Below, one piece after another: positions 5,086-37,266 of a stretch of 64,000 nt of DNA; position 1 is the stretch's first letter, and every line of letters starts with the position of its first letter. Source of the stretch: a virus; the IMG/VR virus record IMGVR_UViG_3300018080_000099, positions 128,001-192,000 of that record; one strand, written 5' to 3'. Below the pieces are notes generated by a model that saw only the letters and a program-made list of their open reading frames with translations, did not search any database and was not told the DNA's origin. Position numbers and translations under genes: made by a program.

Positions 5086-5560
5086 ATCCCTCTTCGGCTT
5101 CTGGGGCTTCGAAAGACTTCTTCATACCATTGATAACCATAGCCCACTTGCCCTTGTTATAGCCACGAGCATCCTTCATACGGTTCTCAAGGTTCTTCTC
5201 GCTTTCAGTAAACCACATGTACTTGATTTTGGTTTTGCCGTAGTCATCATTGATTAACCCGAAGCTGGATTCAAAATCTCTGACGACTTTTATGATTTCC
5301 CTACGTCTGTCCTTCTTGATATGAGTCTCGTCCACAATGACATCCAACCCGTACTCAAGAGCCTTTTCAATAGCAAGATTTGTGGCATTTTTAATGAAAG
5401 GTTCATACCTCATATCGAATGTGTATTCCCCACCTTTAATCATACTTCTGAAAGCATCACGATTGATGATAACAACATCTTTATTTTCTTTGGCGAATTT
5501 TGTAGAAAAAGTTGACTTACCACTACCAGGAAATCCAATATTGATATAAACAGTGCTCAT
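5039..5560 (-). CDS. P-loop kinase (polynucleotide-kinase-like kinase domain)
   Basis: IGFPGSGKSTF Walker A, closely resembling the T4 Pnk kinase domain GCPGSGKST; 173 aa. Confidence 0.5.
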   Translation of the reverse strand: MSTVYINIGFPGSGKSTFSTKFAKENKDVVIINRDAFRSMIKGGEYTFDMRYEPFIKNATNLAIEKALEYGLDVIVDETHIKKDRRREIIKVVRDFESSFGLINDDYGKTKIKYMWFTESEKNLENRMKDARGYNKGKWAMVINGMKKSFEAPEAEEGCDELIKIDNPFEAKI

Positions 5561-5563
5561 ATA

Positions 5564-5779
5564 TCAATCTCCTTTATTAATCTGTTGTGTAAAAAACTCA
5601 AAAATGGGATTAACCGCATTTGGAATAATAATTTTTAATTCTTTTGGCCACGGAACTTTACTTAAATATTTACCTTTACGAACAATCATGTTTTGTCCAT
5701 CACTACAAATAATTAAATCATTTGTTTTGATATTTTTAGACATTTGGTTGGTTAAATGACAATTCATTTTTTTGTTCAT
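5564..5779 (-). CDS. Small hypothetical protein (AT-rich cassette)
   Basis: 71-aa ORF with the conserved GGAGATTGGTATATG start context. Confidence 0.35.
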   Translation of the reverse strand: MNKKMNCHLTNQMSKNIKTNDLIICSDGQNMIVRKGKYLSKVPWPKELKIIIPNAVNPIFEFFTQQINKGD

Positions 5780-5967
5780 ATACCAATCTCCATATTTTCT
5801 AAACCTTCAATAATACCTTTACCAATAGTTTTACAAAATTCATCAAAAATGTCTTCACCAAGTGCTCTCGCATCACGAATAGATTCAACATTCATTTCAA
5901 CACCAAAATCAACAATAGGTGAAAAATCTTCAGTTTTTAGTTTTGGATTTTTAATTATTAAACTCAT
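5776..5967 (-). CDS. Small hypothetical protein (AT-rich cassette)
   Basis: 63-aa ORF with the conserved GGAGATTGATATATG start context. Confidence 0.35.
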   Translation of the reverse strand: MSLIIKNPKLKTEDFSPIVDFGVEMNVESIRDARALGEDIFDEFCKTIGKGIIEGLENMEIGI

Positions 5968-6749
5968 ATATCAATCTCCACTATTTCGTTGAGTTCTTGT
6001 TTCGGTTTGAATTGTCCTTCTTCATCGCCAACTTTGAAAGGCATCGTGTAGCCTTTGGCTTTCCACTTCTCAAAAAGCTTGTCTCTCGATGACTTCCACT
6101 CATCCTTGAACACACCCATACCAGTTGACTGATGATAGATGAGTATGTCGGCTACGGCAATTTTATATCCCTTGTCAAGGAACTGGAATCCGAAGTCGAT
6201 GTCATAGAAATCATTGTGCTCAAAAGTCTCAGTATCAAAAGAGATACCCTCTTTGAGGAATCTTCCCTTTGTCACCATGAAGCATCCGTCAATGGCAACA
6301 AGGTCGTCAAAGTATCCGATGGGGCCTTTGACAAGATGGAAACCTTCTCCCTGTCCACCACCATCCTTACCTTGAATCAGGTGGCCTCGCATCTTGTCAG
6401 GAGTCGTCATCCACCACCCACCCTTCTCGGTCAGCTCAGTCGCACCGGCAATTCCCACAAGTCCAACGTCTGTCTTTTCAGTAAAGAGAAGTTCAATCTT
6501 CTCCTTAAACAGGTTGTCCACCATTCCAATATCTTCGTGCATGAAAATGACAATATCATCGTCTGTCAAGTCAGCATTCATTGCGGCTTCAATACCGGCA
6601 TTATACTTCTTGAAAATACTCTCATTAGCTCCGGGGACTTTATCAAAAACTTGGAGGGCTTGAGTTCCAATCTTCTTGGTTGAAGGTTCAGCAAACATCT
6701 TATACTTAGCATCGTTATGCCGAGGGATTATGACTTTGATATTAGCCAT
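5964..6749 (-). CDS. Hypothetical protein, possible GT-A-like nucleotide-sugar transferase
   Basis: 261 aa. Acidic DDDIVIFMHED block reminiscent of a DxD region. No firm family assignment. Confidence 0.3.
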   Translation of the reverse strand: MANIKVIIPRHNDAKYKMFAEPSTKKIGTQALQVFDKVPGANESIFKKYNAGIEAAMNADLTDDDIVIFMHEDIGMVDNLFKEKIELLFTEKTDVGLVGIAGATELTEKGGWWMTTPDKMRGHLIQGKDGGGQGEGFHLVKGPIGYFDDLVAIDGCFMVTKGRFLKEGISFDTETFEHNDFYDIDFGFQFLDKGYKIAVADILIYHQSTGMGVFKDEWKSSRDKLFEKWKAKGYTMPFKVGDEEGQFKPKQELNEIVEIDI

Positions 6750-26630: not shown

Positions 26631-26774
26631 GCTTCTCTATGAGATTATCTTCAGGTACATCCAGTCTTTCAAACATGTACTCACTGCCGGGCTCTGCTCT
26701 GACAACGTATGGGTCATTCAGTAACCAGTTAGCGTAGTTAATGTAATCTCTATATTTCATACTGTTATGTCTAA

Positions 26775-26990
26775 TTATTCAACAGACAAAGCTTCTTTTT
26801 TTGTCTCTTTATTATTAAAAATAGCTTTAATCTGACCATCACCAGTTTCATTTTTTTCCATTCTATTGAGAAGCTTTTTAACTTCCTTAACCAAGAAATT
26901 TTTGTTTACTTGGTTTAATTTTGAATGGTAACTGTCAAGAGTTAATAAACAAGATGTTATAATCCCATAATCCATTTTATCAATTCTCAT
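26775..26990 (-). CDS. Small hypothetical protein (AT-rich)
   Basis: 71-aa ORF. Confidence 0.3.
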   Translation of the reverse strand: MRIDKMDYGIITSCLLTLDSYHSKLNQVNKNFLVKEVKKLLNRMEKNETGDGQIKAIFNNKETKKEALSVE

Positions 26991-26999
26991 AATTCCTCC

Positions 27000-27485
27000 T
27001 TAATATTGTGCGCTATGCCATGCCTTGTAGAACTCATTGATGATTTTGTGCTCAAGCAAATCATCTACACTCGGAACAATCCAACTCGCGAAGTATTCCA
27101 AGAACGGATGGAACTTGTATTGGTCTTCATCAGTAATCATGATGATTGGCTTGTGCATCTGCCAACCCCAAGCAAGTTCACATATGGTTCCAGTTAGCGG
27201 TCGGGTCTTTCCAAACCTGTCCATGTTGACAACAATCAAGTCACACTTCTCGACACATGTGTAATCCTTATGGACGATGGCATGTGGCGGAATCTGACCT
27301 TTCAATCCGTCCGGAGAAATTTCAGCAAAGTTTTCCCCATTGAGCGGGTCGAGCCAACAAATAGGATAGCGCTTATTCTGCCCTTTCCAGTTGTCATAAT
27401 GCTCGCGAATCCTGACTCTCCACTCCGTACATTCCTTAATAACCTGTCCCTGAATGTACCCGGCAAGATAAACTTTCATTGCCAT
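27000..27485 (-). CDS. Nucleoside 2-deoxyribosyltransferase-like protein
   Basis: N-terminal VYLAGYIQG and a distal PLTGTICELAWGW, the YLAG...GTxxExxxA pattern of this fold. Confidence 0.5.
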   Translation of the reverse strand: MAMKVYLAGYIQGQVIKECTEWRVRIREHYDNWKGQNKRYPICWLDPLNGENFAEISPDGLKGQIPPHAIVHKDYTCVEKCDLIVVNMDRFGKTRPLTGTICELAWGWQMHKPIIMITDEDQYKFHPFLEYFASWIVPSVDDLLEHKIINEFYKAWHSAQY

Positions 27486-33535: not shown

Positions 33536-33946
33536 ATGACAAAGGACGAGTTCAAGAAATTGAAGCTGATGGTAGAGAAGAGCCTGAAAATTACCCACGA
33601 CAATGTGACAGACAAAACAATCTCACTTTCTACGCTGTACGCAAATCTGATTCAGGTTTACTCAAAAGAAGTGAAAATATTGAAAACTAAGTTTCACGAC
33701 AAAGAGAAAATCTATGGAGATTTGTACCATCACTACAAATTCAATTTCCAATTCCAGCTTGATACCAAAGCCGAGGTAGAAGCCTACATTAAAGCCGACA
33801 ATAAGTACTACACTGCCGCTCTCGAATATGTAGACCAAGAAATTGTCGTTAAGTTCATTGAGCAAACCCTTGACCATATAAATAATATTGGATTCAGGAT
33901 TAAGAATTACATTGACTTAAAGAAGATGGAAAAGGGATTAATGTAG
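33536..33946 (+). CDS. Hypothetical protein (first gene of the rightward arm)
   Basis: 136-aa ORF with AGGAG 8 nt upstream. Confidence 0.5.
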   Translation: MTKDEFKKLKLMVEKSLKITHDNVTDKTISLSTLYANLIQVYSKEVKILKTKFHDKEKIYGDLYHHYKFNFQFQLDTKAEVEAYIKADNKYYTAALEYVDQEIVVKFIEQTLDHINNIGFRIKNYIDLKKMEKGLM

Positions 33947-34217: not shown

Positions 34218-35585
34218 ATGAGCGATATTATCGCGCTTGAAAAATTGAATGAAGTCGATTTTCGAGTCAAAGGACTCACACAAGGCTCTGCGCTTGAACT
34301 CAAGGAACACCTTACATGCGTCATAGATAACTGGTGGTTCCATCCGAGAGCAAAGGCTGGCTGGCGTGGAGAGATTTCATACTTCAACTGGAACGAACAA
34401 ACAGTACCCATTGGACTTTTTCCTCAAATGGTGAAGTTCTGCAAGAAGTTTGGGTATAAGCTAAAGATAGATTTTGACAAAGAAGAACTCTTTAATGACA
34501 TCAGCGATGAGGACTTCGAGGAATTCTACAAGGCAATCTTCAGGGATTCGACATTTGAACCCCGCGATTATCAGGACGAGTCCATCAAAAGGGCTCTTAG
34601 AAAGAAGCGCGGAATTATAGAATCTCCTACAGGCTCAGGAAAATCGTTAGTAATCTATACGCTGATACGATTTTTGTTAGGAGTTTGTGAAGGAAAGATA
34701 CTCTTGATTGTGCCGAACATTAGTCTTGTAAACCAGATGTTCTCAGACTTCAAGGAGTACGGCTGGGAGCAGTGTGAAGGGTATTGCAATTTGGTGTTCG
34801 GTGGCTCACAGAAAAGGTGGCAGTTACCCATAACTATCTCCACTTGGCAGTCAATTTACAAGAAGTCTATTGACTTTTTTGCACAATATCAGGCTGTTAT
34901 CGTGGACGAAACCCACGGAGCTAAGGCATCTTCAATACAGAAGTGCCTGAAGAAGTGTATCAATGCTGAGTACCGAATTGGTACAACAGGCACAATGCCG
35001 GATAGTAGGCAGGACCAGTTCACCATTTATGGGTATCTGGGGCCGAAAATCTTCAGCTTGACAAGTGGGGAATTGATTGACAAGGGCATCTTGTCGAAGA
35101 TAAAGATTGCGAACTTGTTGGTTCATTATCCGAAGGAAACGGTTTGGAATTACTGGCATGATGCTGAGGGGCATTTGGTTGGCAACTCTTATCAAGAGGA
35201 GCTTGACCAAATCTATGGAAATCATAGCAGAAATGGGGTTTTTAACTTCGTTTTGGACAATATTGATGCTGAGCAGAACGTGCTGATTCTCTGTCACAAA
35301 ATCAGTCATTTGAAGGACATTCGTGAGTACTTAGAAAAGAACTTTGGTGACAGAACGATATATGAGATTTACGGTCGTACTAAGGGTGATGAAAGAGAAA
35401 GAATAAGAAAAAAATTAGATACTGGTGAAAGAAAAATATTTTTAACTGATAATTCTTATATTATTATTGAAAATAAAGAAAAAGTTTTATTAACAAACGG
35501 ACAGTATAAAGAAGGATTAAAAATTACTTTAAAAGATGATATTAGTGATGTTTGGATAAAATCTAAAAAAGTTTATAAAAATTAA
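34218..35585 (+). CDS. SF2 DExH helicase, N-terminal part (UvsW-like); the reading frame ends inside an AT-rich insertion
   Basis: Motif I SPTGSGKSLV, motif II VIVDETH, motif III GTTGTMPD. Motifs V and VI are missing from this ORF. GC drops sharply after about 35440. Confidence 0.7.
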   Translation: MSDIIALEKLNEVDFRVKGLTQGSALELKEHLTCVIDNWWFHPRAKAGWRGEISYFNWNEQTVPIGLFPQMVKFCKKFGYKLKIDFDKEELFNDISDEDFEEFYKAIFRDSTFEPRDYQDESIKRALRKKRGIIESPTGSGKSLVIYTLIRFLLGVCEGKILLIVPNISLVNQMFSDFKEYGWEQCEGYCNLVFGGSQKRWQLPITISTWQSIYKKSIDFFAQYQAVIVDETHGAKASSIQKCLKKCINAEYRIGTTGTMPDSRQDQFTIYGYLGPKIFSLTSGELIDKGILSKIKIANLLVHYPKETVWNYWHDAEGHLVGNSYQEELDQIYGNHSRNGVFNFVLDNIDAEQNVLILCHKISHLKDIREYLEKNFGDRTIYEIYGRTKGDERERIRKKLDTGERKIFLTDNSYIIIENKEKVLLTNGQYKEGLKITLKDDISDVWIKSKKVYKN

Positions 35586-35595
35586 TGTTTATTGG

Positions 35596-35603
35596 TATAA
35601 ATA
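35596..35603 (+). promoter_or_regulatory. T4-type late promoter TATAAATA
   Basis: Exact TATAAATA 28 nt upstream of the ATG at 35631. Confidence 0.5.
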
Positions 35604-35630
35604 TAATTAGAATATTAAATACAAGGATTT

Positions 35631-36041
35631 ATGATGAATTTTAACAATTATTTAATGGAATCAATTAATAAGTTAAATAAAATTATTGAAGATTTTAGAA
35701 AAACTCTTGAAAATGATTATGATTGGCAAGAAGATAAAATGTGTATGAAAGGCACGTGCCAATCTGTTACTAAAGAACTTGTAGATTTGTTAAACAAAAA
35801 TGGATATAATGCTAAAAGAGTTAACGGAAGATATATGAACATATCAGATGATTTTGAGCCTGATATGAGTCAATGGAGTGATGAAGATATAGAAGAATGG
35901 ACTCCTGATATGGGAATGAATCATTGGTGGGTTGAGATTGGTGATAAAATTGTTGATGTGACTGCTGACCAATTTCATCCAAAAGAAGAAGATGATTATA
36001 GAATTATTATTACTAATAAAAGCAATAGGGATTATGAATGA
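35631..36041 (+). CDS. Hypothetical protein encoded inside the insertion
   Basis: 136-aa ORF, AT-rich codon usage. Confidence 0.4.
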   Translation: MMNFNNYLMESINKLNKIIEDFRKTLENDYDWQEDKMCMKGTCQSVTKELVDLLNKNGYNAKRVNGRYMNISDDFEPDMSQWSDEDIEEWTPDMGMNHWWVEIGDKIVDVTADQFHPKEEDDYRIIITNKSNRDYE

Positions 36042-36904
36042 TTTTTAGTAAATTTATTAAATTATTAGGAGAACCTACTAATAGAAAATTACTTCTTCAA
36101 TATATTTCATTTTGTAAAAACAGTTGTACTAATATTGGAAATAAAATAGAAAAACATCATATTGTTCCTAAAAGTGTTTGTAGAGAATGGATTAAAGAAA
36201 GTTTCAATATTATTCCTATGGAGTATGAGAATCATATTAAAGCTCATAGAATGTTAGTAGAAATTTATCCAATTAGAAAGTTTTATAGACCGTTGAATTA
36301 TATGCTTAATTATAATAAACCCGATGAATATTCAAAAATGAAAAGTAAAGAAGTAATTGATTGGTGGGTGTCTTTTAGAAAAAGCGATGAATATTTATTG
36401 TGGATTGAAAGAAGAAGAAAAAGTACTAATAATTTTGAAAATTTTATAAAAGGTGGTATTAAAAGTTCTATAAAAAGAAATAAAAGTAAAAAGTATCGGG
36501 AGAAAATTTCTGAAAAATGTAAGGATTTTTGGAATGTTAAAAATAGAAAAGAACATTCTAAAAAAATAAAAGAAGCAATGACAAATGAAGTTAAAAATAA
36601 AATGTCAATAATTTCAGAAGAAAGATGGGCTAATAAAGATTTTAGAAATAAAATGAAGAATAAAATGAAAGATGTTAATAGTCAAGAAGAAAAAAGGAAA
36701 ATTAGTTCAGAAAAAAATAAAAAGCATTGGAAGAGTTTGGAATATAGAAAGAAAATGAAAGAAGCAAGAGAAAATGGAAAGCAAAGAGATGTCGTTGGTC
36801 AATCAAATAAAATGAAAGAAAAATGGAAAAATCCTGAATTTAGAAAAATGATGTTAGAAAAAAGAAGGAAATCATATGAAGCCAAAAAAAATAGAGGAAA
36901 TTAA
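36038..36904 (+). CDS. HNH homing endonuclease
   Basis: EKHHIVPKSV...YENHIKAHR HNH motif, and a Lys-rich C-terminal DNA-binding-like tail with repeated KNKMK. Confidence 0.65.
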   Translation: MIFSKFIKLLGEPTNRKLLLQYISFCKNSCTNIGNKIEKHHIVPKSVCREWIKESFNIIPMEYENHIKAHRMLVEIYPIRKFYRPLNYMLNYNKPDEYSKMKSKEVIDWWVSFRKSDEYLLWIERRRKSTNNFENFIKGGIKSSIKRNKSKKYREKISEKCKDFWNVKNRKEHSKKIKEAMTNEVKNKMSIISEERWANKDFRNKMKNKMKDVNSQEEKRKISSEKNKKHWKSLEYRKKMKEARENGKQRDVVGQSNKMKEKWKNPEFRKMMLEKRRKSYEAKKNRGN

Positions 36905-36948
36905 AAGTCCCGGCCAAATTTTGGTCGGGACTTATTAGTTAAGCCACC

Positions 36949-37266
36949 ATGAGTACAGGAATAAATATAAAAAGACTACATCATGTTATATTTGCCTCAA
37001 GTTACCGTTCAAAGATTAAGGTGCTTCAGAGTATAGGTAGAGGCCTGAGAACCCACAAGACTAAGGACTTGTTAATTGTGTGGGATATTGTTGATGACTT
37101 GAGTTTCATACACAAGTGGGGCGATAAGGATGTGCTTCACAAAAACCATGTGTTCAAGCACTGGTATCAGAGATTGCAATACTATAAAAAACAAGGCTTT
37201 AATTTTGTCACAAGAAAGATAAATACAACTGAATATTATACTCAGGAGGATTCGGAAAATGGCTAA
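36949..37266 (+). CDS. SF2 helicase C-terminal segment (motifs V and VI); candidate exon 2
   Basis: STGINIKRLHHVIF (motif V) and QSIGRGLR (motif VI). No RBS before its ATG. The in-frame sequence extends back to 36943. Confidence 0.6.
   Translation: MSTGINIKRLHHVIFASSYRSKIKVLQSIGRGLRTHKTKDLLIVWDIVDDLSFIHKWGDKDVLHKNHVFKHWYQRLQYYKKQGFNFVTRKINTTEYYTQEDSENG

Follow-up and report, generated by a model that had tools for sequence, protein, structure and literature searches.

A free-standing HNH endonuclease cassette of mobA-like architecture in the uvsW helicase gene of a T4-like phage, with a short coding gap that ribosomes may hop

We propose that, in a 64,000-nucleotide stretch of viral DNA (IMG/VR record IMGVR_UViG_3300018080_000099, positions 128,001 to 192,000; hereafter the window, whose own numbering is used throughout), the gene encoding the UvsW-type helicase has been divided, between motifs IV and V, by an HNH endonuclease cassette of the ‘genes-in-pieces’ kind. 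The element, at 35427-36942, is very probably a free-standing cassette with the architecture of the mobA element of phage T4, and not an intron. Besides its endonuclease gene it provides a C-terminal extension (CTE) in frame with the upstream half of the helicase and, for the downstream half, a micro-open reading frame (micro-ORF) encoding an N-terminal extension (NTE); this micro-ORF closes with a copy of host residues and is parted from the helicase frame by a 7-nt coding gap that contains stop codons. From related loci we infer that a programmed short bypass or frameshift makes the second half. To the explanation as a whole (cassette, repair by the two extensions, reassembly of the helicase, a 7-nt ribosomal hop and protection of the endonuclease target) we assign a probability of roughly 0.6.

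Results

The split uvsW gene

The window belongs to a novel T4-like phage. Against the UvsW proteins in 50,697 phage records its own reaches just 31-35% identity, the region gave no megablast match to those records, and the translations of adjacent ORFs include gp46-like SbcC and UvsY-like proteins. A first-pass annotation, made from the letters of the DNA, had placed helicase motifs I-IV in the ORF at 34218-35585 and motifs V-VI in a second ORF, on either side of an AT-rich island, and profile searches bear this out. Pfam recognises UvsW_N, ResIII/DEAD and the first half of Helicase_C (residues 349-409) in the first ORF and the end of Helicase_C in the ORF at 36949-37266; PHROG DNA-helicase profiles end at about residue 408-417 of the first ORF and restart at residue 2-3 of the second. 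The host portion of the N fragment finishes at about ...ERERIRKKLDTG, and up to this point (~35426) the fragment is 66% identical to the unsplit homologues P0005/P0009; the C fragment is 41-43% identical to the C-terminus of cyanophage UvsW. Unsplit homologues at 66% identity, found by searching with the N-terminal ORF, read ...IILGT(Y/F)ATMSTGINIKRLHH... without a break. The island, as claimed, is AT-rich: GC content across ~35300-36950 is 0.165-0.31, against a window mean of 0.419, and no other large AT-rich island is present in the window.

Tails, host-sequence copy and coding gap

Over its last ~50 codons the first ORF encodes a conserved, added domain and not a chance read-through. This CTE has 16% GC inside a host gene of 42% GC, begins with a strand-like copy of the host ‘IILGT’ (KIFLT) and is kept at the protein level in split homologues of 42-66% identity (P0002, P0003, P0015, P0041, P0045, P0047, P0081 and P0118 were aligned with it), whose last ~50 residues share the pattern V-x-L-x-N-G-x-x-K-x-A-K-D-I-T-x-x-D-D-I-S-D-x-W-I-K. 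Such conservation at the amino-acid level argues that the CTE is a selected protein domain, and not a reading of the helicase frame into an intron. Searched against 1.84 billion cluster representatives, a profile built on it matched 97 (E<=1e-3), in nearly every case at the very C-terminus. All matches that could be typed by Pfam were UvsW-type helicase fragments, and the idea that the CTE is a module common to other host genes was rejected on this ground. AlphaFold2 (AF2) models the CTE as beta strands, with predicted local distance difference test (pLDDT) values of 58-68.

A CTE-like tail is also present elsewhere in UvsW: P0203 (260 aa), a cyanophage-like UvsW N fragment, carries RVTLYLENNTKITLAGSENIRMINKSMKQVSDLTEGDDIDEQWLK at residues 207-252, so that its tail site, at about residue 205, is a second site well upstream of motif V. 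This position suggests that the tail module may be used at more than one uvsW insertion site.

On the other side of the island, the first-pass annotation had reported an in-frame resumption of the helicase at 36944 without a ribosome-binding site. The first AUG of the C fragment, at 36949, does indeed have no Shine-Dalgarno sequence; what had been missed is the micro-ORF at 36876-36938, with GAAGGA upstream of it, and the resumption itself lies at 36943 (GCC), just after a TAA at 36940-42. AAGGA or GGAG is found 5' of the micro-ORF start in seven of nine types (there is none in L005 or L013). The micro-ORF encodes 14 cassette-specific residues (36876-36917) followed by ILVGTY (36918-35), in which the cassette carries its own copy of the host residues that stand before motif V, matching IILGTY/F in unsplit homologues; depending on lineage, the copy reads ILVGTY, ILLGTY, VIVATY, ILIGSL or IIIASFGTF. 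The micro-ORF shares 29 nt with the HNH ORF, in a different frame, and is kept, with synonymous changes, at every related locus.

Between the micro-ORF and the helicase frame lies the gap TAGTTAA, which presents a stop in frame 0 (TAG) and another in frame +1 (TAA); beyond it the helicase frame reads GCC ACC ATG AGT (ATMS). Deleting exactly these seven nucleotides gives the native ...GTYATMSTG..., as in unsplit homologues, which read ...GTY/F-ATMSTG.... This is the comparison with uninterrupted homologues that the first pass had recommended. No near-identical uninterrupted allele was found, and for that reason the left edge of the insertion and the endonuclease target are placed only approximately.

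The same arrangement recurs in relatives. Relative to the micro-ORF, motif V stands in the +1 frame in all of the 11 distinct types from metagenomes; the gaps measure 1, 4 or 7 nt (Table 1) and the codon boundary is always identical. The gaps are not errors, because identical sequences recur in independent assemblies (L004/L009/L012, L013/L014, L008/L010, L007/L011, L027-29 and L048/50/52/119). DNA-pattern scans yielded just two viral and three metagenome loci, all duplicating the L008, L009/L004 and L007 types; a distant blastn search with the NTE region gave a single irrelevant 42-nt match, and no cultured phage in the phage collection searched has the gap-bearing form.

These regularities bear on whether the C fragment has simply decayed, its frameshift being a pseudogenising mutation or a fault of assembly. 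A gap that disrupts the frame with stops, in a window that comes from a metagenomic assembly, would fit decay of this kind, but the gap recurs in independent assemblies, its offset is always +1 and its codon boundary always the same. Moreover the C-fragment ORF is intact in all, with a ratio of non-synonymous to synonymous change (dN/dS) of 0.07-0.14 where computable, which indicates strong purifying selection (non-synonymous differences 0.14-0.32 versus synonymous differences of 0.67-0.93, the latter saturated). We regard decay as very improbable.

A strong hairpin close to the 3' end of the island, noted in the first pass, is present (it folds at -25 kcal/mol, z = -4.1). It does not belong to non-coding RNA: it sits inside the conserved micro-ORF, with its 3' arm encoding the host-sequence copy, and in extended form that arm also spans UAU, the last sense codon, together with the UAG stop. 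Across an alignment of eight sequences, 96.6% of cells pair and four of the 11 pairs show double-sided change; the covariation score was matched by 0 of 500 shuffles and pairing was lost on sliding the partner. A hairpin is found at the same position in all ten of ten types, always abutting the last codon before the gap, and divergent types build it from wholly different stems (L007, GUCCUAAGAA; L027, GUGACUCGAU; L048, a GGAGG-rich arm). An intrinsic terminator was considered for this structure and rejected, as a consensus scan makes no terminator call on it and it lies inside a conserved, translated ORF.

Table 1. Features of the split uvsW gene and its cassette, and coding-gap variants at related loci
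Feature	Position in window, or source of variant	Strand	Details
uvsW N fragment, whole ORF	34218-35585	+	455 aa; product is P0001
Host portion of uvsW N fragment	34218..35426	+	UvsW_N, motifs I-IV, first half of RecA-like domain 2
CTE supplied by cassette	35427..35585	+	ERKIFLTDNSYIIIENKEKVLLTNGQYKEGLKITLKDDISDVWIKSKKVYKN, then stop; in frame with N fragment; left edge +/-~25 nt
T4-type late-promoter-like box TATAAATA	35596..35603	+	exact match; 27 nt 5' of 136-aa ORF; putative function
136-aa passenger ORF	35631..36041	+	from ORF list; near-orphan
HNH homing endonuclease gene	36038..36904	+	288 aa, intact, free-standing
Shine-Dalgarno-like GAAGGA	36864..36869	+	6 nt 5' of micro-ORF start; read from sequence
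NTE micro-ORF	36876..36938	+	MKPKKIEEIKSPGQILVGTY, then stop TAG
RNA hairpin	36899..36941 extended; core 36907-36931	+	stem 36907-36915 / 36923-36931
7-nt coding gap TAGTTAA	36936..36942	+	between Tyr TAT (36933-35) and Ala GCC (36943)
uvsW C fragment	36943..37266	+	motifs V-VI and C-terminal domain; begins ATMSTGINIKRLHH
Gap variant, 7 nt	W group		TAGTTAA, TAGCTAA, TAGCTGA
Gap variant, 7 nt	L027		TTGACTG between CUU and CUG, stop-less
Gap variant, 4 nt	L005		TAAC (UAU-UAA-C)
Gap variant, 4 nt	L007		TGAC (UAU-UGA-C)
Gap variant, 1 nt	L048, L050		extra U in ACC-UUU-U-UCU, on U5 run

Intron and intein explanations

The first-pass annotation had favoured a group I intron with an internal homing endonuclease gene, of the kind found in T4 td, nrdB and nrdD, with the island spliced out to give a continuous helicase. 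This idea has points in its favour: the endonuclease gene interrupts a conserved catalytic region, a strong hairpin stands towards the 3' end, with a G close to the point of resumption, and in Dickeya phage LIMEstone1 the corresponding insertion was published as a putative intron (PMC3296691). Yet an Rfam 15 search of the whole window, as the first pass had suggested, gave 0 matches at gathering thresholds, and the Intron_gpI model (RF00028) found nothing in 35300-37050 even at E<=10; the weak matches obtained in the region under permissive settings were only of terminator-like hairpins to rli38. Non-coding DNA in the island amounts to ~45 nt (35586-35630) plus 39 nt (36905-36943), the latter largely within the micro-ORF, and this is too little for a P3-P9 core, for which at least ~200 nt of structured RNA would be expected. 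Both ends of the island are protein-coding and conserved at the amino-acid level, the split outlasts the endonuclease in relatives whose 78-144 nt spacer holds the micro-ORF and is far below ribozyme size, and the C half in LIMEstone1 is an ordinary in-frame ORF with the same NTE. We therefore give the intron next to no credence.

The other suggestion of the first-pass annotation, that a free-standing homing endonuclease gene has split uvsW, was essentially right, but passed over the CTE and NTE, the host-sequence copy and the stop-containing gap; a picture of two polypeptides made from two ordinary ORFs is incomplete, because the C half is out of frame behind that 7-nt gap.

Might the CTE and NTE instead be the halves of a degenerate or atypical split intein (a ‘fractured gene’), so that the two parts of the helicase are ligated after translation? 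The CTE does contain a Hint-like beta-hairpin pattern (V-x-L-x-N-G-x-x-K-x-A-K-D-I-x-x-D-D-I), and genuine split or contiguous inteins occur at motif II of uvsW in L008 and L009. Neither extension has a Hint or intein Pfam match, though, whereas the true inteins at the other uvsW site in L008 and L009 do yield both motifs and matches. Together the CTE and NTE come to ~60-65 residues, below the size of a Hint fold; an intein nucleophile is lacking, because the first CTE residue varies (T/D/N/H/F); no His-Asn precedes the C extein, and the frameshift parts the NTE from it. An intein of this sort seems to us scarcely credible.

The inteins at motif II (DE|C...SN|CHG) are of note in their own right. 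L009 (7307-9136) has a contiguous mini-intein of ~150 aa, and in L008 (7533-10246) a split intein has an ORF for a 318-aa endonuclease-like protein between its halves; the UvsW of L008 is therefore encoded in three or four pieces. Hint domains at the same site were also seen in P0004, P0087, P0094, P0117, P0133 and P0199.

Expression of the second half

How the C fragment might be reached is best seen in relatives whose C frame has no usable start. In the L004/L009/L012 type (three assemblies), motif V is ATLSTG (ACG TTA AGT) and the first ATG, GTG or TTG of the C frame is codon 88 of 97; in L027 the sole start candidate is a GTG inside motif V; and in L048 there is no start codon downstream of the resume codon. 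In these types, then, the C fragment could be reached only via the micro-ORF, across the gap. In-frame relatives with a gap of 0 encode the predicted fused product directly (LIMEstone1 ORF122, P0234, P0258, P0261, P0276 and P0284), ORF122 reading MKPTKINKAEDITVLATYGTFSTG....

For the window itself, recoding is argued from homology, because the AUG at 36949 is present there; we lean towards recoding across the gap as the normal route. The gap would have to be crossed by a 7-nt hop, since a plain +1 shift, which we rejected for the window, runs at once into TAA. Reassignment of a stop codon was likewise rejected: relatives have TAG, TGA or TAA at this spot, and reading through it would not bring the ribosome into the helicase frame.

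Mobility of the cassette

The claim of a mobile-element event is supported. When the window was compared with L013 (66% protein identity), DNA identity was 99% across the NTE, hairpin and gap and 80% in the CTE, against 65% in the helicase core and 71% in the C fragment; this comparison and the contrast in GC content point to recent transfer of the cassette between diverged phages. There is also presence/absence polymorphism, with the gene split in the window and unsplit in homologues at 66% identity. The endonuclease gene is absent from L004, L006 and L007, where the halves are 78-144 nt apart and the CTE, NTE, hairpin and gap are retained; decaying remnants of it are found in L013 and L016.

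Cargo and neighbouring features

The HNH ORF that the first pass had recognised is real, matching PHROG 12434 (HNH endonuclease, 2.6e-9) and PHROG 655 (homing endonuclease, 7.7e-9). The N-terminal part of its product holds the motif EKHHIVPK...N...H..AH and the C-terminal part W-x-(D/N)-P-E-(F/Y)-R repeats; the product is 69% identical to the endonuclease at the same site in L008. Its closest T-even counterpart is another free-standing endonuclease, encoded between genes 47 and 46 (26% identity over 90% of the length). In L005 a GIY-YIG/NUMOD3 endonuclease gene (1123-1926) adjoins a gp47-like (Metallophos) gene, near where T-even phages carry the gene closest to that of the window. In the cyanophage-like clade of L048 (4425-5110; also L050, L052 and L119), a GIY-YIG gene has taken the place of the HNH gene and the CTE and NTE are kept.

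The 136-aa ORF is also real. A search of 5.8 billion proteins gave it a single homologue, P0217 (36% identity); it shows a weak papain/transglutaminase-like Cys...His...Asp pattern (GTCQS...HWWVE...DVTAD) and only sub-threshold Pfam matches, to YunG, Tox-PLDMTX and Transglut_core. No such ORF is present in the related cassettes examined (L005, L008, L027 and LIMEstone1), and by this comparison the ORF and its late-promoter-like box are a passenger added in the window alone.

The box itself, TATAAATA, had been called a late promoter in the first pass. Nine copies occur in the window against 2.0 expected, a count reached in 0 of 100 shuffles; those at 472, 1766, 3116 and 4695 are all on the - strand and those at 33877, 35596, 45512, 57660 and 63131 all on the + strand. 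This strand pattern and the excess of copies suggest that the phage probably uses T4-type late promoters.

At its 3' end the uvsW C fragment overlaps the next ORF (222 aa, ATG at 37259) by 8 nt (37259-37266), which suggests downstream translational coupling between the two. Smaller AT-rich patches at 5451-6000 and 26701-27050 (GC 0.26-0.28), over short hypothetical - strand ORFs, could be other recently acquired DNA.

Discussion

We propose that insertion of the HNH cassette between motifs IV and V would have been accompanied by three repairs of the host gene: the upstream half is joined in frame to a CTE of ~50 residues; the downstream half receives a new ribosome-binding site and a short NTE; and the displaced host residues are encoded anew as ILVGTY. 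The helicase halves would be separate polypeptides, their reassembly probably aided by the CTE and NTE, by analogy with gp39/gp60 and with the NrdA of Aeromonas phage Aeh1. Translation of the second would begin at the micro-ORF (36876) and pass through the hairpin to UAU-UAG, where the ribosome would skip TAGTTAA, hopping forward a short way from UAU onto UAA, a near-cognate triplet, and enter motif V. The likely driver of this hop is refolding of the hairpin behind the ribosome; in at least part of the gene 60 literature, refolding of a 5' stem-loop is proposed as the forward driver. The predicted product is a C fragment of 127 aa, MKPKKIEEIKSPGQILVGTY-ATMSTG..., with junction peptides ILVGTYATMSTGINIK and SPGQILVGTYATMSTGINIK. 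By analogy with the gap in T4 gene 60, the 7-nt insert probably also ruins the endonuclease's own target (presumed to be the gap-less ...GTCGGGACTTATGCCACCATGAGT...), and so may shield the genome that carries the cassette.

The closest known counterpart is the T4 mobA element (genes 39, mobA and 60), with its 50-nt bypass, reportedly described by Bonocora and coworkers in 2011. The most recent survey of mobA elements (Manning & Atkins, bioRxiv 10.1101/2022.08.31.505936) describes an HNH gene of 269-279 aa, an in-frame CTE of ~44 aa, an NTE made of unique residues and a ‘homR’ copy of deleted host sequence, out-of-frame overlaps with the endonuclease ORF, and a stop-led coding gap beside a conserved stem-loop; the endonuclease is often decayed or replaced while the tails and the gap are retained, and gap-less clades exist. 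The likeness of the uvsW cassette to these elements is extensive. Both place an HNH gene for ~270-290 aa (288 in the window) inside an essential-type gene of DNA metabolism; both have the in-frame CTE, the NTE with its host copy, the out-of-frame overlap, the stop directly after the last codon and the stem-loop; both show decay of the endonuclease or, in L048, its exchange for GIY-YIG, with tails and gap kept; and both have gap-less variants. The opening residues of the two NTEs are similar as well (MKFVKID in T4, MKPKKIE in the window), and the CTE of T4 gp39 resembles that of UvsW.

There are differences. The host gene is uvsW in the window and Topo2L for mobA; gaps in uvsW are of 1, 4 or 7 nt as against 20-50 nt; the window has neither an internal Shine-Dalgarno sequence nor an AU-rich tract; its NTE is 20 aa long as against ~45; and its bypass is a prediction from sequence comparison. 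We conclude that the uvsW cassette works like the mobA element and is probably distantly related to it, and we do not call it a member of that family.

Several observations weigh against the explanation that we favour. The similarity of the window endonuclease to MobA is confined to the HNH motif region (E ~5e-6 against five MobA sequences). Profile-profile alignment of the CTE of T4 gp39 (...TIIVNENDEVQINGKW..., GDTIIVNENDEVQINGKWITVGEL) with that of UvsW (...YIIIENKEKVLLTNGQYKEGLKI...) gave only a weak hhalign match (P = 2.8e-4, probability 41%), and the link between the two tails hangs on it because the HMMER search with the CTE profile, among its 1.84 billion representatives, returned UvsW and did not retrieve T4 gp39. 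In an AF2 model of the concatenated halves the helicase core is confident, but the all-beta CTE and NTE reach a pLDDT of only 58-73, for which reason we claim no docking structure for them. The take-off and landing triplets are near-matches (UAU/UAA in the window, UAU/UGA in L008) and not the matched pairs of gene 60, although L027 offers CUU/CUG as a matched pair; the hairpin stands 5' of the take-off codon and extends across it, where that of mobA has its start there; and the case for bypass is a comparative one, made from sequence.

Last among these points are those that concern the AUG at 36949, which lies only 10 nt past the UAG and which underlies the main rival for this window: the same cassette, without recoding. 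In that scheme the micro-ORF would act as a leader whose translation opens the hairpin, with termination and reinitiation at the AUG that lacks a Shine-Dalgarno sequence, and UvsW would consist of the N fragment with its CTE (in which ‘KIFL’ replaces the missing strand), a 20-aa peptide and a 105-aa C fragment (MSTGINI). The stops in the gap shut both frame 0 and frame +1; ATG is enriched at the 36949 codon in split alleles (seven of eight of the W/L004-L016 type, versus ~2 of 6 unsplit homologues); gene callers start the C fragments P0218-P0221 at that Met; and a copy of the host strand does open the CTE. What reinitiation leaves unexplained is the L004/L009/L012, L027 and L048 types, which have no start and whose C fragments are under purifying selection. 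It would also leave the ILVGTY copy with helicase-like, lineage-specific residues for which a mere leader has no need, and in the in-frame relatives NTE, copy and C fragment are one protein. We consider reinitiation unlikely in the window, though it is by far the most serious of the alternatives, and return to the hop as our preferred explanation.

A free-standing HNH gene that splits an enzyme gene into two ORFs with added tails has a parallel in mobE, which Friedrich and coworkers reportedly found in 2007 in nrdA of Aeromonas phage Aeh1, giving a ribonucleotide reductase with its ‘genes in pieces’. The tailed products of Aeh1 reassemble into an active enzyme, as we suppose by analogy for UvsW; there, the host gene is another one and no coding gap or frameshift is described.

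The same gene is split at the same site in Dickeya phage LIMEstone1, where Adriaenssens et al. 2012 (PMC3296691) reported a uvsW with an HNH gene, labelled as the putative intron I-LimI; the CTE, NTE and recoding are not described for LIMEstone1 in that paper. In LIMEstone1, and in other Limestonevirus, we find a homologous CTE (...EKVLLSNGETKVAMFVTEEDDVDDNWIK...), the same HNH repeat architecture and the same NTE (MKPTKINKAEDI followed by TVLATY); in contrast to the window, a single gap-less ORF runs through NTE, host copy and C fragment, and there is no 136-aa ORF. At this locus (L122; NC_019925.1 87109-89703), ORF124, which ends in the CTE, has a 23-nt overlap with the HNH ORF, and ORF122 opens with MKPTKINKAEDI and continues into motif V without a change of frame; a long hairpin (GAAGAUAUCACGGUGCU...AGCACCGGGAUAUCUU) encloses the junction. 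We doubt the intron label because the same CTE and NTE are present with an ordinary in-frame C ORF, and I-LimI looks like the same kind of free-standing cassette.

Fractured genes, in which a free-standing endonuclease gene lies between the halves of a split intein, are said to have been described by Dassa and coworkers in 2009. They resemble the window in that an endonuclease ORF breaks a gene and both halves are tailed, and the L008 motif II insertion is a true case; they differ in that the CTE and NTE of the window are too short and have none of the catalytic intein blocks, so that protein splicing is not expected.

Among recoding events, short tRNA hops and ‘shifty stops’ in E. coli (reportedly Weiss and coworkers, 1987) and the +1 frameshift of prfB (reportedly Craigen and Caskey, 1986) share with our proposal the forward movement of a peptidyl-tRNA at the codon before a stop, as in the 4-nt variants; the 1-nt variant lies on a U5 run. 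The window would differ in needing a 7-nt skip, and it has no Shine-Dalgarno sequence 3 nt upstream as prfB does. Laboratory tRNA hops are inefficient (~1%).

For more than 35 years the bypass in T4 gene 60 has stood in textbooks as a singular case. CTE and NTE tails are an idea already published for mobA and mobE, and mobA elements were described as exclusive to Topo2L, with a bypass cassette that ‘remains unique’ (bioRxiv 10.1101/2022.08.31.505936). We found no paper in the literature describing the tails, the host-sequence copy or the 1-, 4- or 7-nt gaps of the uvsW cassette. Here a related kind of cassette occurs in a different gene, uvsW, with much shorter gaps behind a covarying hairpin; the family is widespread, and natural in-frame controls exist, including the cultured Dickeya phage LIMEstone1. 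We see about an even chance that the uvsW cassette is a second, independent family of endonuclease-borne coding gaps, which ribosomes would hop by 7, 4 or 1 nt with the help of an upstream hairpin. For insertions of this kind, the intron calls of annotators, and their starting of C fragments at an internal Met, are both probably wrong.

If our explanation is true, bypassing of the gene 60 type would not be a one-off, but a recurrent means of hiding a target site within a conserved coding sequence, and the series of 0-, 1-, 4- and 7-nt gaps would constitute a minimal and evolutionarily replicated system in which take-off, landing and mRNA refolding could be followed. It would also support the view that endonuclease cassettes routinely carry their own repair kits, in the form of extensions and a copy of host sequence, together with camouflage for their target.

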